Source of the DNA: an uncultured Draconibacterium sp.
GTDB lineage: Bacteria > Bacteroidota > Bacteroidia > Bacteroidales > Prolixibacteraceae
Assembly: GCF_913060805.1 (NCBI RefSeq)
Contig: NZ_CAJXTC010000024.1
Coordinates: 8,079-72,078 of the forward strand
DNA: 64,000 nt
Direction of reading: 5' to 3'
The translations under genes were made by a program, and so were the position numbers. This document shows positions 32,882 to 56,498 of the stretch, piece by piece (the first letter of the stretch is position 1; each line of letters begins with the position of its first letter). The notes under the pieces are model-generated. The model ran no database searches. It worked only from the letters and a program-made list of their open reading frames with translations, and had not been told where the DNA came from.

Positions 32882-32892
32882 AAAATAAGACG

Positions 32893-34473: not shown

Positions 34474-34499
34474 GTATTGATAATTATCAGATGATAGTG

Positions 34500-34557
34500 A
34501 GGCTATTGTCCATAGATAGTTTTGGTTAGAAAAAGAGGTGGTTAAACACCACCTCTT
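34500..34557 (+). repeat. Repeat unit 1 with GC-rich hairpin in the susD-downstream gap
   Basis: ggctattgtccatagatagtt...aagaggtggt-taaac-accacctctt. Confidence 0.7.
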
Positions 34558-34685
34558 ATCTTAAACTTTGTTTGATACAATTTCCTGCATTATATTAAAA
34601 TTATAGAATGATTATAGATTTTGTATTCATCGCGGATGCTTAAATGTTTGGAAAATTTTTTCAAATACCACGAGAAATGAAAATA

Positions 34686-34743
34686 GTCTATTCGCATAGA
34701 TAGTTAGTTAGAGAAGAGGTGGTTATGTGAACGGCCACCTCTT
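34686..34743 (+). repeat. Repeat unit 2 with GC-rich hairpin in the susD-downstream gap
   Basis: gtctattcgcatagatagtt...aagaggtgg-(12 nt)-ccacctctt has the same leader word and the same stem sequence as unit 1, 186 bp downstream. Confidence 0.7.
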
Positions 34744-34914
34744 TAAATCCAAGCGGAATGATCAAATTTGCTTGAATCGTTTAAGGAAAAAGTAATATCA
34801 AATATGGGATTAAAATATAGATCACTGAAGCATCAGTAATATTCCTCTGTCGACTTAGAACCAGAGCAACTGTGTGGTATCGAAATTCTTTAGAGTTGGA
34901 GAAATTACAGAAGG

Positions 34915-35787
34915 ATGAAAAATGTAAATAACATAATTTTATTGGCAATTGTCCTGCTAATTTATAGTTGCCAGTTTGTTCCTAAAAATCCATTGGATTT
35001 TGGGGAGAATGACAAATATTCAATTGAAGCGATTAACTGCGTAAATACCGAGAGTAAAAACATTTACGGTGTCGCCTATATCCCAAAAGGAGAACAGGAT
35101 CAGAAATACCCATTAGTTATATTATCACATGGTTACAGCAGTTCGCATATGTTTCTCACAAGTTATGGTACTGCATTGGCCGAAAATGGTATTGCCTGTT
35201 ATACTTTCGATTTTTGTGGTGGTTCCAATCTGAGTAAAAGCGATGGAAAAACAACTGAAATGTCGGTATTAACCGAAAAGGATGATCTGGAAACAGTGTT
35301 AGCTGCATCAAAGAATTGGTCGTTTGTTGATACACTCAATATATTCTTAAGTGGTGAAAGCCAGGGAGGATTTGTTTCAGCTCTTGCAGCTGCCGAATGC
35401 GAAGAAGAAATAAGAGGTATGGTTTTGCTCTACCCAGCCTTTCACATGCCGGATGCCATGAGGAATGAATTTCCTGACAAGCAAGGAATAAAAGACGAAA
35501 TGGACTTTCCGAATAAGATGAAAATAGGCCGGTGCTATGTTGATGCACTCTATAATATGGATGCATTTGAAGTAACCAAAAACTTTGATAAAGAAGTACT
35601 ACTCATACATGGTGATAAGGACAAGGCAGTTCCCCTTTCCTATGCAGAAAGAGCCGCAAAGGAATATCCATTAGCCACTTTAAAGGTCATTAAAGGAGCT
35701 GGACATGTGTTTATTTTTAAGAGACACAGAAACAAGGCAATCAAATATTTTTTGGAATATATCAACAAGCAGGTATCAGAAAAATAA
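34915..35787 (+). CDS. Alpha/beta-hydrolase lipoprotein (cinnamoyl/feruloyl-esterase-like serine esterase)
   Basis: 290 aa with a lipoprotein signal (LLIYSC), nucleophile elbow GESQGG, and HGDKDKAVP plus a GAGH region giving Asp/His candidates. Confidence 0.6.
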   Translation: MKNVNNIILLAIVLLIYSCQFVPKNPLDFGENDKYSIEAINCVNTESKNIYGVAYIPKGEQDQKYPLVILSHGYSSSHMFLTSYGTALAENGIACYTFDFCGGSNLSKSDGKTTEMSVLTEKDDLETVLAASKNWSFVDTLNIFLSGESQGGFVSALAAAECEEEIRGMVLLYPAFHMPDAMRNEFPDKQGIKDEMDFPNKMKIGRCYVDALYNMDAFEVTKNFDKEVLLIHGDKDKAVPLSYAERAAKEYPLATLKVIKGAGHVFIFKRHRNKAIKYFLEYINKQVSEK

Positions 35788-35804
35788 AAGAAGTATAAAA
35801 AAAC

Positions 35805-38207
35805 ATGAGAAATCAACTCAACTTTCGAATAAAATTCATCATTGCAAATGTATTGTTTTTAGTACTAGGTATAACGTTACATTCATTTGCACAAAATACA
35901 AGTCAGGATATATTTGATCATAACTGGGATGCAAGCTGGATTTCGGTACCGGATATTGATCCCAACGGCTACGGTGTGTACTATTTTCGAAAGAATATTG
36001 AACTCAGCTCTATCCCGGAATCTTTCCCGGTTCATGTATCAGCTGATAATCGATACAAATTATTTGTGAATGAACAGTTGGTATCACTTGGGCCTGCACG
36101 AGGAGACCTTTTACATTGGCATTACGAAACGGTAGACTTAGGTCCCTATTTACGGCCCGGAAAAAATATTATTGCAGCACAAGTATGGAATGAGGCAGAA
36201 TATAGAGCTGAAGGACATCTATCGATGCAAACTGGATTTATTCTTCAGGGAGGCACAACAGATGCTGAAGTTTTAAATACAGATGAATCATGGAAATGTA
36301 TCCATGATAAAAGTTATAGCCCAGTGCCGGTTCGCATGGAATTGTTTTATGTGGCCGGGCCAGGTGAAAAAATTGATATGGCTTTGCAGCCTGAAAACTG
36401 GCAAACATTATCGTTTAACGACTCGGCATGGGAGAATTCAGAAGTTCTATTTCCCGGAATTCCGAAAAACATTTTAGGTTATCATGGAGTTTTGGATAGT
36501 TGGTTGCTTGTGCCGTCTGCTTTGCCGCAAATGGAACTAACAGAGCAACGTTTCCTGCAAATTCGCAAGTCTGATGGACTTTCCATCGCAGATTCATTTT
36601 TAGAAGGAAAAGCTCCGGTAACAATACCTGCAAATAGTGACGTTACAATTTTACTCGACCAAACTTTTCTTACAAATGCCTATACAAGTTTGACTTTCAG
36701 CGGTGGAAAAGATGCGGTTATTAATATTGGTTATCAGGAAGCACTGTTTACCGAATACCCTGCAAAAGGTAATCGGAATGAAGTAAATGGAAAAATACTG
36801 CTTGGAAGAAAAGACGAAATACTAGCTGATGGTTCGCAAAACCAACGCTTTACTACCCTTAATTACAGAACCTATCGTTATGTGCAGTTAAACATTACAA
36901 CAAAAAATTCTCCGCTGATACTGGAAGATATTTATGGCACATTTACGGGCTATCCTTTCCAATTGAATGCAAAACTGGAAACCAGTAAACAGGAATTGCA
37001 AAAGATGTTTGAAATAGGATGGCGTTCAGCTCGATTGTGTGCTATGGATACCTACATGGACTGTCCTTATTATGAACAATTGCAATATATCGGTGATGGT
37101 AGAATTCAGGCATTGGTTTCGTTATACAATAGCGGCGACGACAGGTTGATACGTAACGCCTTAAATTTGATGCAATATTCGCAACAACCGGAGGGCGTAA
37201 CGGCTAGTCGCCATCCATCGGTAACACCGCAATATATTTCAACGTTTTCGTTGTGGTATATTGCCATGTTGCACGATTACATGATGTATGGTAACGATCT
37301 GGATTTTGTTGCCGAAAAGCTTCAAAGTACCCGAAATGTGCTGGAATTCTTTGAAGGATATGAAAACGAAGACGGCTCGTTGAAAAATTTGCCATACTGG
37401 ACTTTTACCGATTGGGTATTTACCGACGGTTGGGAGGAGGGTATTGGCCCCATTGGAAAGGATGGAAGTTCGGCATTGTTGGATTTTCAGTTGTTGTATG
37501 CCTTCCAGGTGGCAGCCGAATTAGAACAAGAGTTGGGAATCAGAGAATTGGCAAAGAAATATACCCAGAAGGCAGCTTTGCTCGAAGCGACCATTAAGGC
37601 AAAATACTGGGATAAAAACAGACAGCTCTTTGCCGACCGTATTGAAAAAGACAAGTTTTCGCAACATGCAAATATTCTGGCTATTCTAACCGGAGTTTAT
37701 ACTCCTGAAGAGGCTAATAAAACGGCACAGAAGATCTTAGATGATAACACTCTGGCGCCAGCTTCTATTTACTTCAAATTTTACCTTCACCAAGCACTTA
37801 CAAAAGCCGGTTATGGCAACGACTATTTAAATTGGCTTGGTAAATGGCGGGAAAACATAGCGATGGGATTGACAACCTGGGCTGAAACCTCAGAGATTCA
37901 CGATACCCGTTCCGACTGCCATGCCTGGGGATCAAGTCCGAACATCGAATTTTTCCGAATCATTCTTGGAATCGATAGCGATGCGCCTTGTTTCTCTAAG
38001 GTGAAAATTGAACCGCATTTAGGCGATATCAAAGAAATAGGTGGTGAAATGCCACATCCGAATGGAAAAATTAAAGTTTCCTATAAAGTTAATAAAGGCG
38101 GTTTAAATGCAGCTGTTCTGCTTCCTCCAAATACCTCCGGAACGTTTACCTGGAATAATAAAGTTTATGAACTATCAGAGGGGAAAAATTCACTCGTTTG
38201 TAACTAA
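35805..38207 (+). CDS. Alpha-L-rhamnosidase-related glycosidase (GH78-like: rhamnosidase N domain + six-hairpin catalytic domain)
   Basis: 800 aa. The N-terminal part (WISVP...YYFRKNIEL...VSADNRYKLFVNEQLVSLGP...VDLGPYLRPGKNIIAAQVWN) is like Bac_rhamnosid_N. The catalytic-domain motif is MDCPYYEQLQYIGDG. Confidence 0.55.
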   Translation: MRNQLNFRIKFIIANVLFLVLGITLHSFAQNTSQDIFDHNWDASWISVPDIDPNGYGVYYFRKNIELSSIPESFPVHVSADNRYKLFVNEQLVSLGPARGDLLHWHYETVDLGPYLRPGKNIIAAQVWNEAEYRAEGHLSMQTGFILQGGTTDAEVLNTDESWKCIHDKSYSPVPVRMELFYVAGPGEKIDMALQPENWQTLSFNDSAWENSEVLFPGIPKNILGYHGVLDSWLLVPSALPQMELTEQRFLQIRKSDGLSIADSFLEGKAPVTIPANSDVTILLDQTFLTNAYTSLTFSGGKDAVINIGYQEALFTEYPAKGNRNEVNGKILLGRKDEILADGSQNQRFTTLNYRTYRYVQLNITTKNSPLILEDIYGTFTGYPFQLNAKLETSKQELQKMFEIGWRSARLCAMDTYMDCPYYEQLQYIGDGRIQALVSLYNSGDDRLIRNALNLMQYSQQPEGVTASRHPSVTPQYISTFSLWYIAMLHDYMMYGNDLDFVAEKLQSTRNVLEFFEGYENEDGSLKNLPYWTFTDWVFTDGWEEGIGPIGKDGSSALLDFQLLYAFQVAAELEQELGIRELAKKYTQKAALLEATIKAKYWDKNRQLFADRIEKDKFSQHANILAILTGVYTPEEANKTAQKILDDNTLAPASIYFKFYLHQALTKAGYGNDYLNWLGKWRENIAMGLTTWAETSEIHDTRSDCHAWGSSPNIEFFRIILGIDSDAPCFSKVKIEPHLGDIKEIGGEMPHPNGKIKVSYKVNKGGLNAAVLLPPNTSGTFTWNNKVYELSEGKNSLVCN

Positions 38208-38217
38208 ATCTAAAAAA

Positions 38218-40326
38218 ATGAATAAAAAATTAATCTTGATTCTCATCATGTTTCCACTTAGCTTTACAGGCTTTGCTCAACGGCAATCACTGAATGTAAT
38301 GCCTTATCCCAATAAGGTTATTGTGGGTGAAGGTGTATTCAGAATAAATTCGGATTTTGCCATATCCCTTTTGGCTGCCGATAATGATAAAACAGCAGCA
38401 GATGCAGCAAATCGCTTTTTAATAAGGTTACGACAAAAAACGCTTGTTTATTTTAATCAGGCGAGGATTGAGTCAGGTAATAATCCGACTAATCCAAATA
38501 TGTCAATTCAAATCAATACAAAAGTTGAGTCTTCAATTTATGCGGATGAATCTTATGAATTGAGCGTAACAACAGGTAGAATAGAGTTAAAGGCGCCAAC
38601 TACGATTGGAACGCTTCGGGGATTGGAAACGTTAATTCAATTGGTAACTGCCGATGAGAACGGCTATTATATCCCGGCAGTTCAAATATCCGATGAGCCC
38701 AGGTTTAAGTGGCGGGGAATGTTGGTTGATGTAGCCCGGCATTTTTTACCCATCGAAATTTTGAAGAAAAATATCGATGCGATGGCTGCCGTAAAACTCA
38801 ATATTCTTCATCTTCACCTTACCGACGATGAAGGTTTCAGAGTGGAATCAAAGCTATACCCAAAACTTCATCAAATGGGTTCGTATGGAAGATATTATAC
38901 TCAAAACGAGTTAACCGACCTGGTTAAATATGCTTCCGAAAGAGGAATTACAATTGTTCCTGAATTTGACCTTCCGGGACATTCGCGCAGCTGGTTTGCC
39001 GGTTATCCCGAGTTAGCGAGTGCGCCTGGCCCTTACAAGCCCGGTCCCCGATTTGTATTCGATGCCGATGCTCCCCGCGAGGAACTGGCAGCGGCTGTAA
39101 ACTCGGCACCAACACCAACTATTGATCCAACCAGGGAAGAGGTTTATGAATTTTTGAGTAATCTGTTTGGCGAGATGACGGACATTTTTCCTTCTCCCTA
39201 TTTTCATATTGGTGCCGACGAGAACAACGGTGCAGCCTGGCGGCAGAATCCCAACATTGCGCAGTTTATGAAGGAAAATAAAATGGAAAATACGCATGAA
39301 TTGCATAGCTACTTTGTGGGGCGGGTATACGATATATTTAAGAAACATAACCGTAAAATGATAGCATATCAGGAGGCTTATTCTGAAGAATTACCTAAAG
39401 ATGTTATTTTTCAGGCCTGGATTGCACAAGGTGGACCAATGCAAGCCGTTCCTCCTCTTGAAATTGCCGAAAAAGGAAATACTGTACTTATTAATACCGG
39501 TTTTTACATCGATCTGTTCTTTCCCTCACATGTGCATTATATAAACCCGGAAATTCCCGCCGAACCAATTGAAAATGTTTGGGGTGGAGAAGTGGCGTTG
39601 TGGTCAGAGCTGGTTGATGAGAACTGTTTTGAAGGAAGAGCATGGCCACGATCAGCGGCTGTGGCTGAACGACTTTGGTCTCCGGCAAGTATCACAGAAA
39701 TTAATGATATGTACAGAAGGCTTTACAAATTGAGTGATGAACTTGAGCAAAATGGTTTAAATCACCGTTTGAATGCAAGAAGATGGTTGTCAGTTATGGC
39801 TAACGGAACCTCTCTGGATGCTCCTTATACCATTTTTGAGATTTTAGCTCCTTTCCAGGGGTATAGAAGGTTGGCAACGACAATGATGCAACCGGCCAGT
39901 TATACCTACGAAACTGTACCACTGGTTAATTTGCCTGATATGGTTGACGTGGATTCAGAAGTGGAATGGAAATTCAGAGAACAAGTTGAAATTTATCTGA
40001 ATGAAAAGGAGCCAAAGGCAAAATGGGAAATTGAAAATCAACTGAAGAAATGGAAAGATGCCTCAGTACAACTTAAAAAACAAGTTGGACAGGCTCCAAA
40101 CCTGAAAATACTTAATGCGTACACAGATAGGATTATCAAAGCAAGTGATATTGGTTTGATGGCATTGAAAGTGAATCTAAGTGAAACAAAAAAAGAGGAA
40201 GCATTGCAACAACTAAAATCTATGAAGTTAAGAACGGATGTAGTTGAAATAAGAATCCTTGATGAGATAGAAGCTTTAGTGACTGGCAAACTCACAGAAT
40301 TATCAACAGAGTATAAAATGTATTAA
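38218..40326 (+). CDS. Beta-N-acetylhexosaminidase (GH20)
   Basis: The start is moved to the ATG at 38218 (MNKKLILILIMF signal peptide). Motifs are RFKWRGMLVDVARHF, LNILHLHLTDDEGFR (catalytic D-E) and FHIGADE. Confidence 0.85.
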   Translation: MNKKLILILIMFPLSFTGFAQRQSLNVMPYPNKVIVGEGVFRINSDFAISLLAADNDKTAADAANRFLIRLRQKTLVYFNQARIESGNNPTNPNMSIQINTKVESSIYADESYELSVTTGRIELKAPTTIGTLRGLETLIQLVTADENGYYIPAVQISDEPRFKWRGMLVDVARHFLPIEILKKNIDAMAAVKLNILHLHLTDDEGFRVESKLYPKLHQMGSYGRYYTQNELTDLVKYASERGITIVPEFDLPGHSRSWFAGYPELASAPGPYKPGPRFVFDADAPREELAAAVNSAPTPTIDPTREEVYEFLSNLFGEMTDIFPSPYFHIGADENNGAAWRQNPNIAQFMKENKMENTHELHSYFVGRVYDIFKKHNRKMIAYQEAYSEELPKDVIFQAWIAQGGPMQAVPPLEIAEKGNTVLINTGFYIDLFFPSHVHYINPEIPAEPIENVWGGEVALWSELVDENCFEGRAWPRSAAVAERLWSPASITEINDMYRRLYKLSDELEQNGLNHRLNARRWLSVMANGTSLDAPYTIFEILAPFQGYRRLATTMMQPASYTYETVPLVNLPDMVDVDSEVEWKFREQVEIYLNEKEPKAKWEIENQLKKWKDASVQLKKQVGQAPNLKILNAYTDRIIKASDIGLMALKVNLSETKKEEALQQLKSMKLRTDVVEIRILDEIEALVTGKLTELSTEYKMY

Positions 40327-40358
40327 ACCTAAAACATCAACATTTAATCAAACTAATT

Positions 40359-42491
40359 ATGAATTTTAAAATACAAACATTATTCTATCTGTTTTTAATG
40401 GCAGTAGCCTTAAATATTGAAGCACAGGAAATAAGCTCCGTGTCGACAAACGGTTATGAAACAGAAGATGAACTGTTTAGTGAACCCTATATCGACAGAA
40501 ATGAATGGCGAGATACTCCAATCGGGCACCATTATGTGCACGGGGGGTTTGAAGGAACCAATACCAAATTCTCCTTTTATTTTCCCGTAAAAGAGAAATA
40601 CGATGGTCGCTTTTTTCAATACATAACACCAATTCCAGATAATGAAAATCTTTCTCAGAATGCGCCTACTCGCGAATCGGATAAAATCAGTTTCGCCATT
40701 GAGAGCGGTGCCTACTTTATTGAAACAAATGGTGGCGGCCCGTTGGACTTTTCAAATCCGATGGCAAACGATGCTACCATCGGGGCATATCGTGCGAACG
40801 CTGCGTGTGCCCAATTTTCAAGAGTAGTTGCCAAACAGCTTTATGGAGGTGAACGTCCGTATGGATATGCATTTGGAGGTAGCGGCGGTTCTTTGCGTAC
40901 CATTGGCAGTATCGAAAATACATCGGGAGTTTGGGATGGTGTAGTTCCATATGTGATGCCAACTCCTATGTCAATCCCAAATTCTTTTACAGCTGGAATG
41001 TTGGCTGGCAGGGTACTCAAAAACAAAACATCAGAAATTGTAGATGCTTTGGCAGCAGGAAGCGAAAAAAGTGTTTACGATGTGCTGGAAACTGCTGAGG
41101 AAATTGCAGCATACTATGAAATAACGGCGTTTGGTTTTCCTCCAGGAGCATGGCGAACAGGCCAATCAGAGGGGGCCGGATTGGGAGCTTTTGCCTTGAT
41201 TCTCCCCACAATATTACAAATGGATCCGGGGTATTTTACCGATTTCTGGACTAAACCGGGTTATGCTGGTTATAATCCATCGGAATCCTTAAAAAAAGAT
41301 CGTGTTCAGTTAGTCTCAAAAGTTGAGAAGATAATATCCGCAGAAGAAGCCATGGAAATGGGGCTGGAATATGATCCGTTTGGTGAAGAATCAAGAGGAC
41401 TGGCAGCCAATGCATGGAAAGGATTAATTCAAAAAGATGCGTCGGGAAATATACCAGTTGCGATTCAACTGAAAGCAGTACCGGAGAACAAGACTGGTTC
41501 CTATGACTTGATTGTAAACAGTGGAGTTGTCAAAGGTCAAAAACTAAATATTCAGTGGATAGACGGCAATATTGTGATATTAACGGTGGGAAACAATGAG
41601 GCAGCCAAAAAGTTGAAAGTTGGCGATGAATTAAAATTTGATAATTCAAATCTATTGGCCGTTTCTTATTACCATCGCCATCAGGTTCCTGGAGATGAAT
41701 ACTATGTTTACGATCAATACAAAGATGCAAATGGAAAGCCGATTTATCCACAACGTCCGATGTTGCTGGCTCCGATGTTTGCTGCTGCTGCGTCAGGATC
41801 TGTTCCTTCCGGTAAATTTGAAGGAAGAATGATTGTTGTTCAGAATATGAACGATGGAGGTGCGCTTCCGTGGCATGCCGACTGGATGAAAAGTAGAGTA
41901 AAAGAAAATCTGGGAGACGAGCTGGATGACCATTTCTGTATCATGTTTACTGAACATGCCAATCACGGAGATTATCCTTCACAACCTGATCCAACTCACG
42001 ACATTGTATACCTCGGGGTTTTACACCAGGCATTACGCGATTTAAGCGCTTGGGTGGAGGATGGGATTAAGCCCATGGGTACCAACTATGAGGTAGAAAA
42101 CGGACAGGTAATTTTACCGGAAAAAGCAAATAAACGCGGAGGTATTCAACCTGTAATCAAGGTTAAAGCTAACGGAAAAGAGCGCACTGAGATAAAGGCC
42201 GGTGAAACAGTAACCCTGGAGGCAATTATAGAAGTTCCAAAAAATGCAGGGAAAGTGGTTCTGGCAGAATGGAATTTTGAGGGTGGAAAGGAGTTTGTTG
42301 CCGTTGATAACATTGTCCGCTATTACACAAATTCATCGGGTACAAAAGCAAAGGTTCGGACAACCTACACCTATAAATCCCCCGGAACATATTTCCCGAC
42401 CCTGCAAGGAGGATCGGAACGCTCAGGTAATTTGGAAACACCTTTCGCTGTAATTAAAAACCTGGGCAGTGCGAGAGTAATTGTTAAATAG
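40359..42491 (+). CDS. Secreted 710-aa protein of unknown function, predicted large-lid alpha/beta-hydrolase (paralog A)
   Basis: It has a signal peptide and a G-G-S-G-G nucleophile-elbow-like motif (Ser175, codon agc 40881-40883). Candidate Asp is in VVQNMNDG and candidate His in FTEHANHG. A C-terminal Ig-like domain is present. By eye it is roughly half identical to the next gene. Confidence 0.45.
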   Translation: MNFKIQTLFYLFLMAVALNIEAQEISSVSTNGYETEDELFSEPYIDRNEWRDTPIGHHYVHGGFEGTNTKFSFYFPVKEKYDGRFFQYITPIPDNENLSQNAPTRESDKISFAIESGAYFIETNGGGPLDFSNPMANDATIGAYRANAACAQFSRVVAKQLYGGERPYGYAFGGSGGSLRTIGSIENTSGVWDGVVPYVMPTPMSIPNSFTAGMLAGRVLKNKTSEIVDALAAGSEKSVYDVLETAEEIAAYYEITAFGFPPGAWRTGQSEGAGLGAFALILPTILQMDPGYFTDFWTKPGYAGYNPSESLKKDRVQLVSKVEKIISAEEAMEMGLEYDPFGEESRGLAANAWKGLIQKDASGNIPVAIQLKAVPENKTGSYDLIVNSGVVKGQKLNIQWIDGNIVILTVGNNEAAKKLKVGDELKFDNSNLLAVSYYHRHQVPGDEYYVYDQYKDANGKPIYPQRPMLLAPMFAAAASGSVPSGKFEGRMIVVQNMNDGGALPWHADWMKSRVKENLGDELDDHFCIMFTEHANHGDYPSQPDPTHDIVYLGVLHQALRDLSAWVEDGIKPMGTNYEVENGQVILPEKANKRGGIQPVIKVKANGKERTEIKAGETVTLEAIIEVPKNAGKVVLAEWNFEGGKEFVAVDNIVRYYTNSSGTKAKVRTTYTYKSPGTYFPTLQGGSERSGNLETPFAVIKNLGSARVIVK

Positions 42492-42505
42492 ATATAGAAG
42501 ATCAC

Positions 42506-44638
42506 ATGAAAAAAACAAAATTTGTCAGTTATTACATCGTATTATGTTTCTTTCTTACAGGAACATTTAAAGCGCTGGCTCAAAACCAATCATCCCTGCT
42601 GGGAACTGATTTTGCAAAAGATTTTACATTGCAGGACACGCTTTTTAAAAAGCCTTTTATTGATATAGATGAGTGGCGGGAAAAGCCGGTGAAACATCGA
42701 TATGTTCATGGAGGTTTTGATGACGGGACACGCTTTTCATTTTATTATCCTGAAAAGGAAGATTACACCGGTCGTTTTTTCCAATACATAACGCCTTTCC
42801 CCGATAGCGAAACATCGGCACAGGCGCATCCCGGAGATGTCGGCCCTATTGGTTTTAGTATTTCGCATGGGGCATATTTTGTGGAAACTAACGAAGGTGG
42901 AAAAATTGACTTTGCCGATCCTTCCACATTTAGAGATCCTTCAATTGGTGCATATCGGGCTAATGCTGCATGTGCAGAGCTATCGCGACATATCGCAAAA
43001 ATAATTTACGATTGCGATCGTCCCTATGGATACTGCTTTGGAGGTAGCGGAGGAGCATTCAGAACGATAGGCGGAATGGAAAATACCGATGGGATTTGGG
43101 ATGGAGCTGTTCCTTTTGTTATGGGTTCTCCCAATGCCATTCCCAATGTATTTGCAGTTCGCATGTATGCTTTACGAATTCTAAAAGATAAAATGGCCGA
43201 CATAGTGGATGCATTAAGGCCAGGCGGAAGTGGTGACCCTTATGCAACCTTAACTGTAGAACAGCGCCAGGTACTGCAGGAGTGTACGCGAATGGGATTT
43301 CCGATTAAATCGTGGTATGGATGGGAGTACATGGATGCACATGGTTTTTTGGTGTTATATAAAAGTATTGTGGCAATGGATGAGAAATATTTCCATGAAG
43401 ACTTTTGGAATAAACCGGGGTACTTGGGTTATGATAATCCGGCTTCATTGCAACGCGATCGCGTGCAAACCAAGGGAGTTGTCAAGCAAATTATTGGTCA
43501 AACAGAAGCCGAGGAGCTGGAACTTGTAAAACCGCTTTCGGAGGCTGATCGTGGAACGGCTGACCGTGCTTGGGCCAGCATGGGCTCCGAAATTGAAGAT
43601 AAACCTGTTGTTTATCAAATTGATGTTGATGTTAAAGATATTGGCATGGGAGGAGATCTTTTTATTCTTTCTGGTGAAGGAAAAGGGCAGGTTCTACAAA
43701 TTACCGCAACCAATGGAAAATATGTGGTTTTGGCTCCTGTAAATGAACCTCATTTACTAACCTATTTGCATGTAGGTGATTCTATTCAGGTTGATAATTC
43801 TGATTTCCTCGCGGTTGAAACGTATTATCGCCATCAGATGCCTACACCTGATTATTATGTCTGGAATCAATTTCGAGGATACAACGATGTGCCAATTTAC
43901 CCACAGCGTCCTTTTTTGGTAGGACCCATGATAACAATGGGAGCTTCTGGAACCGTTCCAGAAGGAAAGATCAATGGCAAAATGATTCTATGCTGTTCAG
44001 TATGGGATCGCGAAGCTTTTGCGTGGCAGGGCGATTGGTACAGAAACAAAGTAAAGCAACATCTTGGAGATAAAACTGACAATAACTTTCGCCTATGGTA
44101 CACTGACAGGGCGACGCATGGCGAAGTTGATGACCCAACCGAAGTGGTTTCATATCAGTCGACCCTTTATCAAGCTTTGCTTGATGTGAGTGCCTGGGTT
44201 GAAAAAGGGAATGCACCATCAAAGACATCAGCCTATAAAATTGAGAATGGCCAGGTGCAGTTATTACATAACGGGAAAAAACGCGGAGGAGTACAACCTG
44301 TTCCTTATGCAACTATTGATGGGAAGGAGCGTGTTGAAGCTAAAGTGGGTGAAGAGGTTAGTATTCATGTAGTTGTTGAGGCCCCAGAAAACACTGGAAG
44401 GATAGTGGCAGCAGAGTGGTGTCTTGATGACTCAAAACAATTCACATCTCCGGTTGATTTAAGTAAAGCTGCTTTTAGTGATGGTGGTAGCCGGATCGAG
44501 TTTGAGAAGGTGGTAAGTTTTGAGGAGACTGGAACTTATTTTCCAACAGTTCGTGTTGCTTTGCAACGCGAAGGTGATATTGAAGCTTTGTACACCAAAA
44601 TTCAAAACCTTGGAAAAGTTAGGGTGGTTGTGAAGTAG
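42506..44638 (+). CDS. Secreted 710-aa protein of unknown function, predicted large-lid alpha/beta-hydrolase (paralog B)
   Basis: It has the same length and architecture as paralog A: GGSGG (Ser181, codon agc 43046-43048), CSVWDRE, YTDRATHG, and shared blocks HxYVHGGF, GRFFQYITP, IGAYRANAACA, RPYGY.FGGSGG and YYRHQ.P. Confidence 0.45.
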   Translation: MKKTKFVSYYIVLCFFLTGTFKALAQNQSSLLGTDFAKDFTLQDTLFKKPFIDIDEWREKPVKHRYVHGGFDDGTRFSFYYPEKEDYTGRFFQYITPFPDSETSAQAHPGDVGPIGFSISHGAYFVETNEGGKIDFADPSTFRDPSIGAYRANAACAELSRHIAKIIYDCDRPYGYCFGGSGGAFRTIGGMENTDGIWDGAVPFVMGSPNAIPNVFAVRMYALRILKDKMADIVDALRPGGSGDPYATLTVEQRQVLQECTRMGFPIKSWYGWEYMDAHGFLVLYKSIVAMDEKYFHEDFWNKPGYLGYDNPASLQRDRVQTKGVVKQIIGQTEAEELELVKPLSEADRGTADRAWASMGSEIEDKPVVYQIDVDVKDIGMGGDLFILSGEGKGQVLQITATNGKYVVLAPVNEPHLLTYLHVGDSIQVDNSDFLAVETYYRHQMPTPDYYVWNQFRGYNDVPIYPQRPFLVGPMITMGASGTVPEGKINGKMILCCSVWDREAFAWQGDWYRNKVKQHLGDKTDNNFRLWYTDRATHGEVDDPTEVVSYQSTLYQALLDVSAWVEKGNAPSKTSAYKIENGQVQLLHNGKKRGGVQPVPYATIDGKERVEAKVGEEVSIHVVVEAPENTGRIVAAEWCLDDSKQFTSPVDLSKAAFSDGGSRIEFEKVVSFEETGTYFPTVRVALQREGDIEALYTKIQNLGKVRVVVK

Positions 44639-44682
44639 TTGGTAGCTGACCACATAGGTACAGAAAAAATAATTTAAGAACT

Positions 44683-46110
44683 ATGTATAGAAATGTAAAA
44701 TTCATTCTAAATCTCGCAATAGCTATTCTGATAAGTAGCAATGTGTCTGCTGGGCAAATCGAAAAACCCCGGGTAATAGTAATGACAGATGGCGAAGTGG
44801 ATGACCGTAGTTCAATGGTTAGGTTTCTGCTTTATACAAACGACATTGATTTAGAGGCTATTATTCAAACCAATTCTGTTTATCAAAAGATAGGATGGAG
44901 TTCGATCGGATGGCTCGAAGAACAAATCAATGCTTACGAAAAGGTTTACTCAAATTTAAAAATACACGATTTATCTTACCCTGCTCCTGATGTATTAAAG
45001 AGTATGATCTATGTGGGCGATGAGGATTCTTCGCATATAGTTGTTGACCCATATTCCAGCCGACGTATCCCGGGTATGGAACCGCTTATCAATCCTTCAA
45101 ATTGGAATGATACACCAGGTTCAGATCGAATCGTGGAAGTTTTACTGGATGATGATCCCAGACCGGTCTTTATCCAAGCCTGGGGAGGAGGTAACACAGC
45201 TGCACGCGCTTTTTATAAATTAAAGACTCAATATCCTAAAGATTACTCCAGAGCCATTTCTAAAGTTATTATGTATAATATTTGGTATCAGGATGGAGCC
45301 GGTAGCTACATCGAAAAGGCCCATCCGGAAGTAACTATGCTGCTCTGTCACTATTTCGATGGTACCTGGGCCTATGGTAGTATGGCTTTTACAGGTTCTT
45401 TTGTCGATGATGATGTGAAAAATGGTCATGGATCGTTAGGTGCACTTTATCCCCAGGATTACATTAGTGAAGGTGATTCACCTGCATTCTTATACACGTT
45501 GGGTAATGGATTAAGAGGTTACGAAGATCCAACCTGGGGTGGATGGGGAGGTCAGTTTTATAAAGTTGAAGGTTGCAAAAATGTGTATCGTGACGTGGAT
45601 AGAGGTTCATACCTGAGGTGGATTGAATATGTGAATCGGGATTTTAAGAACCGCCTGGATTGGTGCGTATCTGAATCTTTTGAAGAAGCAAACCATCGAC
45701 CAGAGATTGAAATTATCGGTGACCTTGACCGGACAGTCAAGTCAGGAGATCTGGTTGAGATAGATGCTCGCATCAGCGACCCCGACCCATTAAATGTGGA
45801 TTTACTTTGGGAACAGTATGCTGATGTATACAAACAGTTGGGAATGGATAAGGAGAGATTTGCAGCTTATGCACAAACCTGGCCCAAAGCTGTTCCTCTT
45901 TGGTGGCAATTCAAAGATGCCGGTACATATAACGGGATGGTTAAAATTTCTGATCCTGAAAAAAATAAAATTCAATTTGTTGCACCAGATGTTAAGGAAG
46001 CAAAAACCATTCATTTGATTTTAGAAGTAAAGGATCAGGGGGCACAGGCCTTGACCTCATTTGCACGGGTTGTTATAACTGTCTTACCATCTAATACTGA
46101 ACGAAAATAG
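44683..46110 (+). CDS. DUF1593 (nucleoside-hydrolase-like domain) protein with C-terminal Ig-like domain
   Basis: 475 aa with a signal peptide. RVIVMTDGEVDDRSSMVRFLLYTNDIDLEAIIQTNS is the characteristic DUF1593 N-terminal motif. Confidence 0.65.
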   Translation: MYRNVKFILNLAIAILISSNVSAGQIEKPRVIVMTDGEVDDRSSMVRFLLYTNDIDLEAIIQTNSVYQKIGWSSIGWLEEQINAYEKVYSNLKIHDLSYPAPDVLKSMIYVGDEDSSHIVVDPYSSRRIPGMEPLINPSNWNDTPGSDRIVEVLLDDDPRPVFIQAWGGGNTAARAFYKLKTQYPKDYSRAISKVIMYNIWYQDGAGSYIEKAHPEVTMLLCHYFDGTWAYGSMAFTGSFVDDDVKNGHGSLGALYPQDYISEGDSPAFLYTLGNGLRGYEDPTWGGWGGQFYKVEGCKNVYRDVDRGSYLRWIEYVNRDFKNRLDWCVSESFEEANHRPEIEIIGDLDRTVKSGDLVEIDARISDPDPLNVDLLWEQYADVYKQLGMDKERFAAYAQTWPKAVPLWWQFKDAGTYNGMVKISDPEKNKIQFVAPDVKEAKTIHLILEVKDQGAQALTSFARVVITVLPSNTERK

Positions 46111-46118
46111 CAAAAGTC

Positions 46119-49100
46119 ATGAGTGCGAAACGCCTTTTCTTCTTATTATTAATAGTTGTTTCAATGATCTCCTGTTCGAAGAATAACACAGGGTCTAGTG
46201 AATTATATGAACAATTTAAAAAACCAGGGAAAGAAGCTCGCCCCAGAGTTTGGTGGCATTGGATGAATGGAAATGTTACTAAAGACGGTATCCAAAAAGA
46301 TTTACTTTGGATGAAACGAAGCGGAATCGGTGGCTTTCAGAATTTCGATGCCGGGATGATGATGCCTCAGGTGGTTGAAAAAAGGCTCACATACATGACG
46401 CCGGAGTGGAAAGACGCCTTTAGGTATGCTACTCATTTGGCCGATTCTCTGGATTTGGAAATGGCAATTGCCGGTTCGCCGGGATGGAGCCAAACTGGTG
46501 GTCCCTGGGTCCCAGCCAAAGATGGTATGAAAAAGCTTGTTTGGCGCGATATTCGTGTGATCGGAGGTCATAAATTTGAAGGGGAATTGCCTGAACCTTA
46601 TACAAATTCTGGAACATTTCAAAACATATCCTTAGCAGACGACGCAACCGCTTTTACATCAGACGGAGAACAAGCTCAGGAATATTATGATGACATCGCT
46701 GTTATAGCTTATAAACTTCCTGTAAAAGATATAAATCTGGCAGAATTAAATCCTGAAGTAACTTCAAGCGGAGGTCGTTTTTCGTTAGCTCAGTTAACAG
46801 ATGGAGATTTAGCAAAAACAAATCTTTTGCCTGTATATCAAAAAGGCGACTACGGCTGGATTCAATTCAAATTCAATCAATCCCAAACCGTCAAATCGAT
46901 TACATTAGTTGGAGGTGGACTAAGAGATCAGTGGGGTGCTGTTCCTCCTGCCAATACGCGCAATCTTCAAGTCAGCGAAGACGGAGTCGTTTTTCGAGAT
47001 CTTTGCCAACTTCCTTTAGGTGGAGTTGCACAACAAACTATAAATATCCCCGAAACAACGAGCAGATATTTTAGGATCAACTTTAAAAATCCAACATCCT
47101 CTCCATATGCATCCATCGAGGCTTTATTCGGAGGACAAGTATCAGAGGTGAAGGGTACCGAAATCGCCGAAATTGTTTTGCATCCGGTTACACGTATCAA
47201 TCATACTGAAGAGAAAGCAGGTTTTGCTGCCGCATTCGATTTGGAAGAAAATCCAACCCCAGCGACCTCCGATGTCGTGGATCTGAACACCGTAATTAAT
47301 CTTACCGACAAGGTTGACGAGAATGGAGTGTTGCAATGGGATGTTCCAGATGGTGCCTGGAAGATAGTTCGGTTCGGGTATTCACTCACCGGAAAAATAA
47401 ATCATCCGGCTTCGCCGGAGGCAACAGGTCTGGAAGTGGATAAGATTGATGCTCGTGCTGTTCGGGATTATTTCAACAATTATCTTGACCAATATAAGGA
47501 CGCTACGGGAGGCTTAATGGGAGATAAAGGTCTGGAATACATTATCACAGATAGTTATGAAGCTGGCCAGATGACCTGGACACCGGCGATGGAACAGGAA
47601 TTTGCAACAAGAAGAGGATATAGTCTGCTTCCATGGATGCCTGTTTTAACAGGGCAAATTATAAAAAGCACAGAAGCTAGTGAGCAGTTTTTGTGGGATT
47701 GGCGGAAAACCATTGGTGAAATGATTGCCGAATTCCATTACGACCAGCTAACCGATATTCTGGATGAACGGGGAATGTCTCGCTATACCGAATCGCACGA
47801 AAACGGACGACTTTATTTGGTTGATGGAATGGATGCCAAACGCAAAGCAGCAGTACCCATGTCGGCAATGTGGATTTCCAGTGGGGCCGGATCTACGCCG
47901 GAAATGGCTCAGGCTGATATTCGCGAATCCGCTTCTGTTGCGCATATCTACGGACAAAACCTGGTCGCAGCTGAATCGCTGACTGCCATGGGCTTGATGG
48001 GGAATGCCTGGTCATACTGTCCCGAAAACCTGAAAGCAACTGCAGATATGGAGCTTGCCAATGGCTTAAACCGGTTTGTTATACATACTTCGGTCCATCA
48101 ACCAATTGACGATAAAATACCTGGTCTAGGATTAATGATATTTGGCCAGTGGTTTAACCGTCACGAAACCTGGGCTGAACAAGCCAAAGCGTGGACCGAT
48201 TACCTGGCGCGTAGTTCGTACTTGTTACAGCAAGGCCAGTTCGTAGCCGATATTGTCTATTACTATGGAGAAGACAATAATATTACAGGCCTATTTGGTC
48301 ACCAGCTTCCCGCAATCCCCAACGGATATAATTTCGACTTTATAAATACGGATGCACTGAATAATCTTCTTGAGGTAAAAGACGGAAATCTGGTTACTCC
48401 AAGTGGAATGAATTACAAAATATTGGTGTTGGACGAAAATTGTAAAAGAATGTCGCTGGCGGTATTGCGCAAATTGAATAAACTGGCATGTGAAGGGGCA
48501 GTCATTGTTGGAAAACGACCTGAGTTTAAAGCCGGCCTACAGGGAGACAACGAGGAATTCAATCGACTTGTGAATGATGTTTGGAATTCGGGAAAAGTCA
48601 ATGTTCGCGAAAGCGAAAGCATGGAACAGGTGCTGAATTCATTAAGTATTAAACCTGATTTTACATACACCTCAGATGATAAGGTTGAACTGTTGAATGT
48701 GCACCGAAAAGTTGGGGATGCAGACATATACTGGGTGAATAGCCGAAGTGGTCAAAGTGAAACTGTAAATGCAACATTTCGGGTCACCGGTAAAAAGCCT
48801 GAGATTTGGCATCCGGAAACAGGAGATAAAGAAGACGCATCCTTCGTTATTGAAAAAGGTACAACTACTGTCAAATTGGATTTAAGTCCTAATGATGCTG
48901 TTTTTGTTGTTTTCGGAGAACCATCAAAAGTGAATAAAGTTGAACTTCCTGAAAAACAAGAAAAAGAAGTTCATGCGGTGGAAGGCCAGTGGAATGTTGT
49001 ATTCCAATCAGGAAGAGGAGCCCCTGCATACTCAACTTTCAATAAGCTTGAATCCTATACTGAAAATTCAAATGAAGGTATAAAATACTTCTCTGGAACC

Positions 49101-49454
49101 GCATCCTACACCAAAACAATTCAGCTATCTGCGATAGATCTTTCAGTTGGAAAATTGTATCTCGACCTAGGGGAAGTGAAAAATCTGGCACAGGTAACAT
49201 TGAATGGTGTCGACTTGGGAGTTGTCTGGAAAAAACCATTTACCCTGGATATTTCTGGTGCCGTTAAGACTGGCGAGAACAAGCTGGAGGTAAAAGTTGT
49301 GAACCTTTGGGTAAATCGCTTGATTGGAGATACACAACCAGATGTAAAAGAAAAAATTACCTATACAACCATGCCGTTTTATCAGTCTCAATCTCCATTA
49401 CAGCCTTCTGGTTTATTAGGGCCTGTAAGTATTGTTTCGGTAATGAACCAATAG
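46119..49454 (+). CDS. Large glycoside hydrolase, GH106-like alpha-L-rhamnosidase family (often annotated 'GH2 sugar-binding domain protein')
   Basis: 1111 aa with a lipoprotein signal (MISC). The N-terminal motif is ARPRVWWHWMNGNVTKDGIQKDLLWMKRSGIGGFQNFD. The C-terminal galactose-binding-like domain has GIKYFSGTASYTK...LDLGEVKNLAQVTLNG...VVNLWVNRLIGD. Confidence 0.5.
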   Translation: MSAKRLFFLLLIVVSMISCSKNNTGSSELYEQFKKPGKEARPRVWWHWMNGNVTKDGIQKDLLWMKRSGIGGFQNFDAGMMMPQVVEKRLTYMTPEWKDAFRYATHLADSLDLEMAIAGSPGWSQTGGPWVPAKDGMKKLVWRDIRVIGGHKFEGELPEPYTNSGTFQNISLADDATAFTSDGEQAQEYYDDIAVIAYKLPVKDINLAELNPEVTSSGGRFSLAQLTDGDLAKTNLLPVYQKGDYGWIQFKFNQSQTVKSITLVGGGLRDQWGAVPPANTRNLQVSEDGVVFRDLCQLPLGGVAQQTINIPETTSRYFRINFKNPTSSPYASIEALFGGQVSEVKGTEIAEIVLHPVTRINHTEEKAGFAAAFDLEENPTPATSDVVDLNTVINLTDKVDENGVLQWDVPDGAWKIVRFGYSLTGKINHPASPEATGLEVDKIDARAVRDYFNNYLDQYKDATGGLMGDKGLEYIITDSYEAGQMTWTPAMEQEFATRRGYSLLPWMPVLTGQIIKSTEASEQFLWDWRKTIGEMIAEFHYDQLTDILDERGMSRYTESHENGRLYLVDGMDAKRKAAVPMSAMWISSGAGSTPEMAQADIRESASVAHIYGQNLVAAESLTAMGLMGNAWSYCPENLKATADMELANGLNRFVIHTSVHQPIDDKIPGLGLMIFGQWFNRHETWAEQAKAWTDYLARSSYLLQQGQFVADIVYYYGEDNNITGLFGHQLPAIPNGYNFDFINTDALNNLLEVKDGNLVTPSGMNYKILVLDENCKRMSLAVLRKLNKLACEGAVIVGKRPEFKAGLQGDNEEFNRLVNDVWNSGKVNVRESESMEQVLNSLSIKPDFTYTSDDKVELLNVHRKVGDADIYWVNSRSGQSETVNATFRVTGKKPEIWHPETGDKEDASFVIEKGTTTVKLDLSPNDAVFVVFGEPSKVNKVELPEKQEKEVHAVEGQWNVVFQSGRGAPAYSTFNKLESYTENSNEGIKYFSGTASYTKTIQLSAIDLSVGKLYLDLGEVKNLAQVTLNGVDLGVVWKKPFTLDISGAVKTGENKLEVKVVNLWVNRLIGDTQPDVKEKITYTTMPFYQSQSPLQPSGLLGPVSIVSVMNQ

Positions 49455-49509
49455 ATATTTAGATAAAAAAAGAATTATCGTGAATAGAGTTAAACAAAAA
49501 TTGAATCAA

Positions 49510-50475: not shown

Positions 50476-50509
50476 AAGGAGACTTCATAAAGTGAACATA
50501 AAAATCAAC

Positions 50510-52936: not shown

Positions 52937-53028
52937 GGGAAGCGAGTCAAAAATGAATAAAGAGTCCAAATAAAATTTAGAAGCAAGAATTGAAATTACA
53001 GTAAGTGTGCAAACGAAATGAAAATTAT

Positions 53029-56472: not shown

Positions 56473-56498
56473 CAGATTGTTTGAAAATCAAAAAAAGG

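Follow-up and report, generated by a model that had tools for sequence, protein, structure and literature searches.

Two adjacent genes, here called A and B, in a 64,000-nt stretch of contig NZ_CAJXTC010000024.1 of an uncultured Draconibacterium sp. (the window) probably encode exported, presumably periplasmic, serine carboxyl-ester hydrolases of a large uncharacterised clade that is distantly homologous to tannase, feruloyl esterase B and MHETase. We judge the pair to be a genuine variant, so far uncharacterised, of an esterase superfamily that is already known.

A tandem pair of paralogues

As the preliminary description had stated, the two genes (Table 1) lie 14 nt apart (ATATAGAAGATCAC) and each encodes 710 amino acids; both have an ATG start codon in the ORF list. 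BLASTP aligns the two proteins over their whole length with 306/711 identities (43%; 575 bits, E = 0), a similarity far beyond chance, and they are thus the paralogues that they had been taken for. The sequence blocks HxYVHGGF, GRFFQYITP, IGAYRANAACA, RPYGYxFGGSGG and the terminal ARVIVK / VRVVVK had been quoted correctly, whereas YYRHQxP is exact in B only, A having YYHRHQVP instead. The subtype to which gene B belongs is common among rumen and gut Bacteroidales.

A hydrophobic, signal-like N-terminus can be recognised by eye in both proteins (MNFKIQTLFYLFLMAVALNIEA/QE in A, MKKTKFVSYYIVLCFFLTGTFKALA/QN in B), and in the structural model of A residues 3-19 are helical and lead into a linker of low confidence. 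Read from their sequences, A and B would be secreted. Many members of the family have no signal peptide, and a periplasmic glycan-processing role is therefore not universal within it. The Ig-like C-terminus noted earlier is PKD/Ig-like both by Pfam and in the all-beta model: A scores 22.5 bits with the PKD model, the cutoff of which is 23.5, 32/50 homologues match it (best E 4.9e-10) and there are weak matches to collagenase PKD domains.

Table 1. Features of the gene pair and its surroundings (positions in the window)
Feature	Position	Strand	Basis or remark
Same-strand SusC/SusD PUL around A and B	28390..63706	+	ORF list and Pfam scans
Gene A	40359..42491	+	ORF, 710 aa; tannase-superfamily-like alpha/beta hydrolase with C-terminal PKD-like domain
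A, putative signal peptide, residues 1-22, cleavage after NIEA	40359..40424	+	Read from sequence
A, strand beta3 and putative oxyanion loop, R84-FFQYITPIP-93	40608..40637	+	HMMER alignment to 6G21
A, nucleophile elbow G173-G-S175-G-G177	40875..40889	+	Between strand 168-174 and helix 176-187 in model
A, putative catalytic Ser175	40881-40883	+	Codon check; in GGSGG
A, cap, residues 199-489	40953..41825	+	Lies between core strands 194-198 and 490-496 in model
A, putative catalytic acid Asp499 (NMNDG)	41853..41855	+	After strand 490-496 in model
A, putative catalytic base His536 (ANHG)	41964..41966	+	After strand 526-531 in model
A, C-terminal PKD/Ig-like beta-sandwich, residues 599-710	42153..42488	+	All-beta, pLDDT 94-98; PKD match
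Gene B	42506..44638	+	ORF, 710 aa; paralogue of gene A (43% identity)
B, putative catalytic Ser181 (GGSGG)	43046..43048	+	Codon check; invariant column in family alignment A1
B, putative catalytic Asp501 (VWDRE)	44006..44008	+	A/B comparison, alignment A1, codon check
B, putative catalytic His538 (ATHG)	44117..44119	+	A/B comparison, alignment A1, codon check

A peripheral branch of the tannase superfamily

Searches of the curated Pfam, NCBIfam and PDB-sequence collections gave no above-threshold match for either protein, both of which fall under the Pfam gathering score of every hydrolase model. The preliminary description had been unable to place them in a named family; this is true with respect to the thresholds of these collections, but a divergent family profile (A2; 97 members, mean column identity 28%) and structural comparison join the family to the tannase superfamily. 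Among solved structures the profile matches FoFaeC (8bhh/6fat; E 1.1e-9), AoFaeB-2 (6g21; 3.4e-9), AoFaeB (3wmt; 2.6e-7), Aspergillus niger tannase (7k4o; 4.3e-6) and Ideonella MHETase (6qg9; 1.1e-5), and its sequence matches are restricted to carboxylic ester hydrolases. The Pfam Tannase model is weakly matched by 19/50 homologues, and a few family members pass its cutoff; B itself has a weak co-linear match to it (residues 490-583 on profile positions 364-457) together with a weak Abhydrolase_10 match, and one homologue carries the automatic name 'Tannase and feruloyl es...'. The family thus lies at the periphery of the tannase superfamily, mostly below threshold, and is not unrelated to the named families. 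It comprises about 800 clusters at 50% identity from at least 517 species, some members being fused to GH43 or to SLH anchors, and our literature search found neither a characterised member nor biochemical data on any member.

Fold and putative catalytic residues

The AlphaFold (AF2) model of protein A (pLDDT 89, pTM 0.88) has an alpha/beta-hydrolase core, predicted with high confidence. When it was compared with the PDB by Foldseek, the best 28 matches were MHETase, FoFaeC, AoFaeB, 6G21 and A. niger tannase (E 2e-12 to 1e-9, probability 1.0), although the global TM-scores with the tannase-family structures are only 0.30-0.43 and the RMSD is large. These fold matches and the residue-for-residue profile alignment bear out, as regards the superfamily, the early hunch of a tannase/feruloyl-esterase-type enzyme; the best matches are all of this type, and the Pfam/NCBIfam and structure searches gave no confident match to a well-characterised non-hydrolase family.

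In the HMMER alignment the family motifs GGSGG, 'nllDee' and 'aeHg' fall on G167-C-S169-T-G-G (GCSTGG), L-M-D381-Q and A-H421-C-S of 6G21, whose catalytic residues are Ser169, Asp381 and His421 (PMC6461665). The serine, aspartate and histidine first singled out in A and B, the numbering of which is right by codon check, thus occur in the expected alpha/beta-hydrolase order and align exactly on published catalytic residues. In 97 diverse homologues they are conserved in 93 (Ser), 96 (Asp) and 95 (His) sequences. From topology and homology, Ser175, Asp499 and His536 most likely form a triad.

The oxyanion residue of 6G21, Gly91 (PMC6461665), falls within the loop R84-FFQYITPIP-93 of A, in which R84, F85, Y88, T90, P91 and P93 are invariant or almost so in the family alignments. 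By alignment the oxyanion loop is GRFFQYITPxP and not the conserved HGGF block.

The Ser-to-Asp separation of about 300 residues reported earlier (324 in A, 320 in B) does reflect a large lid or cap, which occupies the canonical lid position in the model of A. Over some 290 residues it combines a helical part with a small beta-barrel-like sub-domain (about 317-428), which bears the invariant DNSN...YHRHQ motif, and it is well conserved at N429 (97/97 sequences) and R440 (91/97). Modelled separately (pLDDT 75), the isolated cap found nothing in the PDB better than E 0.04 and no tannase-family structure.

Comparison with known esterases

The tannase / feruloyl esterase family (Pfam PF07519; ESTHER Block X 'Tannase', with 3WMT, 6G21, 6FAT/8BHH, 7K4O and 6QG9) shares with A and B a homologous alpha/beta-hydrolase core (E as low as 1e-9 by profile and about 1e-12 by Foldseek), a G-x-S-x-G-G elbow, a Ser, Asp and His that are equivalent one by one, an Asp-to-His spacing of 37 residues in A/B (MHETase 36, 6G21 40), a large lid at the same position of the fold and the WVE.G motif in the helix after the His. 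The differences are equally clear. Where tannases have a disulfide flanking the Ser and His, A, with 2 Cys in total, has Gly174 and Gly537; the oxyanion loop is YITPxP rather than GNGG; the A/B cap, of about 290 aa, exceeds theirs in length and has a beta-barrel-like sub-domain, whereas the tannase lids are alpha-helical and have no detectable similarity to it; and A and B add a PKD-like domain, both remaining under the Pfam gathering threshold.

Abhydrolase_10 (PF20091), a domain of unknown function for which we found no functional annotation, is weakly matched by 29/50 homologues and by B over about 70 residues around the post-His helix (profile 299-370), and two B-type relatives barely exceed its cutoff (24.5 and 25.3 bits against 23). 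However, this is a short C-terminal piece of a 429-position model; B scores 15.5 bits, below the cutoff, and A has no match. The TanLpl-type tannases of Lactobacillus plantarum (ESTHER Block H) are, like A and B putatively, serine esterases with a cap and without the Ser/His-flanking disulfide (PMC6461665), but they are absent from the sequence and fold matches of A/B and represent another alpha/beta-hydrolase branch with another cap. The Bacteroidota PUL esterases (BD-FAE PF20434, CE1/CE6/CE15-type) are accessory ester-removers beside glycoside hydrolases and SusC/D, a role that A and B may share, and BD-FAE genes are present in the same operon; their relationship to A/B is nevertheless limited to the general alpha/beta-hydrolase fold, A and B being two to three times larger with a tannase-type lid position.

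Gene neighbourhood

The pair does lie, as first described, within a glycoside-hydrolase gene cluster, a same-strand SusC/SusD PUL. Its gene order is AraC regulator, SusC, SusD, alpha/beta hydrolase, GH78, GH20, A, B, Sde182_NH-like, GH106, BD-FAE, GH3, SMP-30/gluconolactonase-like, GH2, BD-FAE-like, GH43, GH3 and two unassigned ORFs. This makes seven GH genes and three or four further esterases, with no SDR or GH79 in the ORF list and Pfam scans. Comparable gene sets occur in rumen Bacteroidales and in Cytophagales (e.g. L030).

The recurrent neighbours of the family are GH2, GH79-like, SDR, GH78/GH106, BD-FAE and Sde182-like genes. Over 53 loci we counted a classical SDR on the same strand in 25, NrtR/AraR-type regulators in 25, GH2 in 22, a GH79-like beta-glucuronidase in 17, TetR regulators in 16 and an aldo-keto reductase in 6. 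The neighbourhood is heterogeneous, 25/53 loci having neither a rhamnosidase nor SDR/GH79 neighbours, and the genes most often found nearby (SDR, TetR or NrtR regulators) are as compatible with small-molecule catabolism as with glycan de-esterification.

Possible function

In the mechanism that we envisage, His536, oriented by Asp499 (in B, His538 by Asp501), would activate Ser175 (Ser181) on the nucleophile elbow, which would attack the ester carbonyl; the oxyanion would be held by two backbone NH groups, those of Gly176 and of one YITPxP-loop residue, and the acyl-enzyme would form and then be hydrolysed by the classical alpha/beta-hydrolase route. The family-specific cap may set the specificity, its pocket probably lined by the invariant residues N429, R440, H441/Q442, D289, W297 and Y302. 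As diverged paralogues, A and B could remove two different ester substituents, or one substituent in two contexts, from an imported oligosaccharide or glycoside with rhamnose, galactose or glucuronate among its sugars, and so unblock it for the adjoining GH78, GH106, GH2, GH3, GH43 and GH20 enzymes. The preliminary description had proposed esterase activity and 'undescribed biochemistry' for the pair, and we infer the same: since the catalytic residues are kept and the cap is different, A and B appear to be promising candidates for an as yet undefined activity on esters.

Either protein could instead be an ordinary feruloyl/hydroxycinnamoyl or tannin (galloyl) esterase, too divergent for the Pfam model, that strips pectic or hemicellulosic side chains of their phenolic acids. 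The nearest relatives by both profile and fold are, after all, FaeB/FaeC-type feruloyl esterases and tannase, the operon also has BD-FAE-type feruloyl/acetyl esterases, GH43 and GH2, and the automatic name of the one homologue points the same way. Nevertheless, we regard this as unlikely: specificity in the superfamily is located in the lid (PMC6461665) and that of A/B matches no tannase-family lid, the global TM reaches just 0.3-0.4, A and B depart from the known enzymes both in the oxyanion loop and at the Ser/His-flanking disulfide, and MHETase combines the same core with a completely different, narrow specificity.

Perhaps the target is the non-sugar part of a small-molecule glycoside, either an ester or lactone that belongs to a lipophilic aglycone or the bond to an ester-linked sugar in an acyl-glycoside (bidesmosidic saponins or acylated flavonoid glycosides, for example). 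The chemistry would be unchanged and only the pathway logic different. GH78/GH106, GH2, GH79 and GH3 suit the Rha/Gal/GlcA/Glc chains typical of many plant glycosides, SDR, NrtR/AraR-type or TetR regulators, GH79-like, GH2 and aldo-keto reductase genes are the most frequent over the 53 loci, the closest solved relatives of the SDR include hydroxyacyl-CoA and 17-beta-hydroxysteroid dehydrogenases, and many family members are of cytoplasmic type. Yet the context of A and B themselves is a classical SusC/SusD PUL that has seven GH genes but neither SDR nor GH79, the SDR structure matches are generic and we found no support in the literature, so that this reading seems to us quite doubtful.

An S9/S28-like serine peptidase or amidase of alpha/beta-hydrolase type, with glycopeptides or proteins as its substrates, is very improbable: DPP7/DPP2 and an Aspergillus prolyl endoprotease do appear among the second-tier Foldseek matches (E 4e-7 to 1e-5), and the GH20 gene adjoining A could hint at glycoprotein substrates, but those structures trail the tannase-family ones by 5-7 orders of magnitude in E, the profile recovers carboxylic ester hydrolases exclusively, and A, B and their homologues matched zero peptidase models in Pfam/NCBIfam. 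That the proteins are non-catalytic binding proteins or pseudo-enzymes keeping the fold is hardly credible. Such losses do occur, as rarely in P0345 and P0376, which have Gly for the Ser and Asn for the His; A and B, however, retain all three triad residues and the entire GGSGG elbow, and the persistence of the triad in 93-96 of the 97 sequences, whose columns average 28% identity, indicates selection on catalysis.

A tandem pair of paralogous proteins

The adjacent genes A and B both begin with ATG, each encodes a protein of 710 aa, and the gap between them is 14 nt long (ATATAGAAGATCAC). Over their full length, with few gaps, the two proteins are 43% identical (BLASTP, 575 bits, E = 0). ORFs and alignment together confirm the adjacent paralogues of the preliminary description: every one of the shared sequence blocks that it listed is found in the A/B alignment, and its residue numbers for a putative catalytic triad are right (Ser175, Asp499 and His536 in A; Ser181, Asp501 and His538 in B). 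Proteins identical to the pair have been recorded from an uncultured Draconibacterium. Judged from sequence alone, A and B each begin with what resembles a cleavable signal peptide; reading the IVLC of B as a lipoprotein signal is unlikely from the sequence, with an atypical Leu at -1 and the Cys lying within the hydrophobic core. A recent tandem duplication was also considered, but the identity between A and B is low and most outside homologues are nearly equidistant from both, at roughly 50% identity to each. Judged by these distances, A and B are therefore old paralogues. The same A+B tandem occurs in a related Bacteroidales MAG (locus L007), and a second tandem pair is found in a Tannerellaceae MAG (L076).

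Adjacent SusC and SusD genes co-oriented with CAZyme genes define the surrounding cluster as a PUL, whose order is: AraC regulator – SusC – SusD – alpha/beta hydrolase – GH78 – GH20 – A – B – Sde182_NH-like – GH106 – BD-FAE – GH3 – SMP-30/gluconolactonase-like – GH2 – BD-FAE-like – GH43 – GH3 – two unassigned ORFs. Thus GH78, GH20, GH106, two GH3, GH2 and GH43 genes all lie on the same strand 3' of SusD. There are at least three further genes for alpha/beta-hydrolase esterases (one S9/AXE1-like, one BD-FAE and one BD-FAE/DLH-like); this esterase load is unusually high for one PUL and suggests a heavily esterified substrate.

Positions in the window of A, B and the features around them
Feature	Position	Strand	Remark
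AcrB-type RND efflux pump and outer-membrane efflux protein	23465-28038	+	directly precede the AraC regulator and the PUL
SusC-like TonB-dependent transporter	29759-32881	+	
SusD-like	32893-34473	+	
Further alpha/beta-hydrolase esterase gene	34915-35787	+	
GH78 ORF	35805-38207	+	
GH20 ORF	38107-40326	+	mechanically called; shares ~100 nt with the end of the GH78 ORF
A	40359-42491	+	ATG start, 710 aa
B	42506-44638	+	ATG start, 710 aa
Sde182 nucleoside-hydrolase-like gene	44683-46110	+	PF07632 + PF21027; directly downstream of B
Further alpha/beta-hydrolase esterase gene	49480-50475	+	
Further alpha/beta-hydrolase esterase gene	56481-57386	+	
ORF at the operon 3' end	61424-62569	+	
ORF at the operon 3' end	62579-63706	+	

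Relationship to the tannase superfamily

Neither A nor B matches a Pfam or NCBIfam model at the curated threshold, and phmmer searches with both proteins against all PDB sequences gave no match. The Tannase model (PF07519, gathering threshold 29.8 bits) scores 15.0 bits with A (E 0.012) and 13.5 bits with B (E 0.032), but these sub-threshold matches are informative because they are co-linear: residues 68-195 of A fall on profile positions 19-146 and residues 490-583 of B on positions 364-457. Abhydrolase_10 (PF20091, threshold 23 bits) gives 15.5 bits over 67 residues of B and no match to A. Among 50 diverse homologues, weak matches to Abhydrolase_10 were found in 29 and to Tannase in 19 (best E 2.6e-6). 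Some distant, signal-less members of the family do pass the Tannase cutoff (39.5, 36.3 and 35.0 bits), matching only profile positions 19-157, the N-terminal quarter.

Against the PDB, a profile of 50 family sequences found designer PPR repeat proteins alone, with 1-3 bits for each domain; we consider this a repeat artefact, and a more divergent profile was consequently needed. In an exhaustive profile search covering 1.84 billion representatives, the clusters found numbered 2356 at E <= 1e-3, 1715 at E <= 1e-10 and 797 at E <= 1e-30; 97 sequences from these, with a mean column identity of 28%, were aligned. With this second profile the PDB matches are FoFaeC (8BHH/6FAT, E 1.1e-9), AoFaeB-2 (6G21, E 3.4e-9), AoFaeB (3WMT, E 2.6e-7), A. 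niger tannase (7K4O, E 4.3e-6) and the Ideonella MHETase (6QG9, E 1.1e-5).

The AlphaFold2 model of A, computed from the 50-sequence alignment (mean pLDDT 89, pTM 0.88), has the secondary-structure order of an alpha/beta hydrolase. In it strand 168-174 and helix 176-187 flank Ser175, as in a nucleophile elbow, Asp499 follows strand 490-496 and His536 follows strand 526-531. When this model was compared with the PDB by Foldseek, the first 28 matches were exclusively tannase-family structures (E 2e-12 to 1e-9, probability 1.0), comprising the Ideonella MHETase, Fusarium FaeC, Aspergillus oryzae FaeB and FaeB-2 and A. niger tannase; the next tier consisted of TnmK1/2, DPP7/DPP2 and a prolyl endoprotease (E 1e-7 to 1e-5). 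Whole-protein TM-scores against the tannase-family structures are low (0.30-0.43), which indicates that the core is common to A and that family and the remainder is not. The structure prediction and Foldseek comparison that had been proposed as a check thus returned a canonical topology with its best matches in the tannase family, and the suspected resemblance to tannases and feruloyl esterases is supported by fold and profile alike. The pair, which the preliminary description could not place in a named CAZy or esterase family, stays below the curated Pfam and NCBIfam thresholds but forms a divergent branch of this known superfamily.

For 6G21 the active site has been published (Palm et al. 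2019, PMC6461665): its triad is S169-H421-D381, C168 and C422 form a disulfide, and G91 is the oxyanion residue. The equivalent triad of MHETase is numbered S225/D492/H528. In the alignment of the 97-sequence profile with 6G21, the GGSGG motif of the family falls on G167-C168-S169-T-G-G, its Asp on D381 and its His on H421. Since they align exactly on published catalytic residues, the Ser, Asp and His nominated earlier are homologous to a proven triad. The helix after the His is conserved as well, LrdLiaWvEkG of the family matching (L/M)VxWVExG of the tannase family. Across the 97 sequences the triad is nearly invariant (Ser in 93, Asp in 96 and His in 95). Two homologues, P0345 and P0376, have Gly for Ser plus Asn for His and keep the Asp and the remaining fold; from their sequences they are apparent pseudo-enzymes within the family. 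A and B themselves are very probably Ser-Asp-His hydrolases of the tannase superfamily.

Departures from the tannase family

In over 80% of tannase-family members a pair of Cys residues flanking the Ser and His forms a disulfide (PMC6461665). Here, in contrast, both positions are Gly (Gly174/Gly537 in A, Gly180/Gly539 in B); position 174 is Gly in 82 of the 97 aligned sequences and Cys is never among its listed residues. There are two cysteines in the whole of A. Where the tannases have the GNGG loop with their oxyanion Gly, the alignment shows another loop, R84-FFQYITPxP, that is specific to this family. HGGF was considered as an HSL-type oxyanion motif and rejected: it lies in an N-terminal strand, whereas the oxyanion Gly of 6G21 aligns after the RFFQY strand.

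Like the tannases, the family has its lid, a large insert, between nucleophile and acid in the latter half of the core. The cap between Ser and Asp that the preliminary description anticipated is predicted at this canonical place, as a single insertion in A (residues 199-489) between core strands 194-198 and 490-496. Its fold, however, does not match the lid of the tannase family, which is alpha-helical and has a structural Ca2+ site: in the models of A and of the lid alone, the approximately 290 residues form helices and a six-stranded, barrel-like sub-domain, and when the lid-alone model (pLDDT 75, moderate) was compared with the PDB, no structure scored better than E 0.04 and none of the tannase family was matched. 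Apart from the triad, the most invariant positions of the family lie in this cap (N429 in 97 of 97 sequences, R440 in 91 of 97, D289, W297 and Y302).

A further difference from the tannase family is an appended C-terminal PKD-like domain. Residues 599-710 of A are modelled as an all-beta domain with pLDDT above 94; A reaches 22.5 bits with PKD (PF00801), just below the cutoff of 23.5, B has no match, and 32 of the 50 homologues do (best E 4.9e-10). A T9SS C-terminal sorting domain, which would be confined to Bacteroidota with T9SS, was considered for the RVVVK ending and rejected: there was no NCBIfam match (Por_Secre_tail) at E <= 1, and the same domain and ending occur in Gammaproteobacteria, in Verrucomicrobia and in homologues without a signal peptide. 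Being kept in the latter, the domain is better regarded as part of the enzyme than as a sorting tag. On account of the differing disulfide, oxyanion loop and cap, the extra domain and the Pfam scores, we place the family at the periphery of the tannase superfamily, as an uncharacterised branch outside the curated family.

Distribution and genomic context

In a pattern scan that covered a single genome for each species, relatives turned up in at least 517 genomes, mostly of Bacteroidota (Cytophagales, Chitinophagales, Sphingobacteriales and Bacteroidales), with others in Cellvibrionales, Verrucomicrobia and one Anaerolineae MAG. The family is large, with about 800 clusters at 50% identity (E <= 1e-30), and its members are frequent among Bacteroidota of soil and water and among Bacteroidales of the rumen and gut. 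Metagenomes from rumen and gut are rich in B-type proteins; one sequence is present on 205 contigs. A B-type homologue, P0134, also occurs in the cultured D. orientale. Almost always, family members are annotated as 'hypothetical' or 'PKD domain-containing'. A rumen Bacteroidales cluster with a B-type gene (Sde182_NH-like, BD-FAE, SusC, SusD, GH2, family gene, GH78, GH106-GH43, GH3) has nearly the same gene set as the window.

Independently of the window, we clustered the neighbours of family genes in 53 loci of at least 15 kb. The recurrent partners are a classical SDR and a divergent NrtR/AraR-type regulator (25 loci each), GH2 (22), GH79-like (17), TetR (16), a ThuA-GSDH-cytochrome c protein (11), GH106 (9), GH3 (8) and GH78 (7). 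Rhamnosidases together with SDR/GH79 occur in 7 loci, and 25 have neither kind of neighbour. One Cytophagales locus (L030) combines GH79, SDR, GH78, NrtR, BD-FAE, the family gene, GH20 and Sde182_NH-like. In Cytophagales and Chitinophagales we observed a small recurrent module of divergent NrtR/AraR-type regulator, GH79-like, classical SDR, family gene and GH2, often with a ThuA-GSDH-cytochrome c fusion or an aldo-keto reductase nearby (L008-L086; e.g. L053 at 7553-12073, L030 and L079).

The partner GH2s, including that of the window, are closest to a Bacteroides beta-galactosidase-type GH2, the GH79-like partner is closest to heparanase and hyaluronoglucuronidase, and the SDR has generic matches; typing of these three partners pinned down no substrate. 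Fusion partners of family proteins include GH43, ThuA and SLH anchors. Taken together, partner genes and fusions point to ester-bearing glycans or glycosides with rhamnose, galactose and glucuronate as the substrate class.

Sde182_NH-like genes also lie near family members in L001-L004, L030, L045, L076 and L077, that is, in rumen Bacteroidales and several environmental Bacteroidota. In the protein P0334, the C-terminal 60% of the hydrolase is fused to a Sde182_NH-like domain; P0334 is possibly a mis-join and, with only that part of the hydrolase and no Ser, unreliable as Rosetta-stone evidence.

Proposed function

By the mechanism that we infer, His536, oriented by Asp499, would activate Ser175 for attack on an ester carbonyl, the oxyanion would be held by the NH of Gly176 and the YITPxP loop, and the acyl-enzyme would then be hydrolysed, with the cap forming the acyl/alcohol pocket. 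More speculatively, the invariant R440 might bind a carboxylate, as R411 of MHETase does (PMC6461665). Once exported to the periplasm, A and B would each strip different ester groups from the imported oligosaccharides or glycosides, letting the neighbouring exo-glycosidases proceed.

That A and B are esterases acting on the substrate of this PUL is the reading we favour, and it is probably right. The closest structures are feruloyl esterases, tannase and MHETase, so that ordinary feruloyl or tannin esterases must be weighed; with a lid of different architecture, this seems unlikely. The SDR/TetR/GH79 contexts suggest another alternative, in which an ester, lactone or acyl-glycoside bond of small-molecule glycosides is hydrolysed; against it stands the SusC/SusD PUL of the window, and we regard it as quite improbable. 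Peptidases enter the structural comparison in its second tier, behind an unbroken series of tannase-family matches, and a peptidase function is very improbable. A non-catalytic role, for which the substituted homologues would be the precedent, is hardly credible for two proteins with the complete triad.

In the literature outside subscription journals we found no characterised member or structure of the family, and nothing relevant on tannase-like enzymes in PULs, on PF20091 or on related gene sets. The family is real, widespread and unannotated; its catalytic core is known, its cap is new, and we consider it a solid candidate for both a new carbohydrate-esterase family and new ester specificities. 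As MHETase arose in the same superfamily, new specificity may plausibly come from a branch whose cap is entirely different. Tentatively, one may go further and propose a CAZy-type family with a disulfide-less tannase-type core, a new helical-plus-beta-barrel lid and a specificity outside the current CE families, the Draconibacterium pair representing two specificities needed in sequence; an ester on, or an acyl-glycosidic ester to, rhamnose/glucuronate/galactose glycans or glycosides is then a possibility.

Conceptually there is no surprise here and current understanding stands; what is filled is an annotation gap, and a new CE family could be defined. Accessory esterases are often the bottleneck when complex glycans of plants and algae are degraded, and they are sought as tools for biomass processing and the release of bioactive phenolics. 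The link to the tannase/FaeB/MHETase superfamily provides a concrete mechanism, a short list of candidate substrates and targets for mutagenesis, namely the three triad residues of A and of B.

Other genes of the locus

The true start of the GH20 gene is probably an internal Met at residue 37 (MNKKLILILIMFPLSF..., signal-peptide-like), with which the overlap with GH78 disappears. Of the two ORFs at the 3' end of the operon, one is PETase-like below threshold (26.4 bits against a cutoff of 28) and the other is without a Pfam match; both may be additional uncharacterised hydrolases of the PUL. At the opposite end, the PUL is directly preceded by the efflux genes listed in the table.
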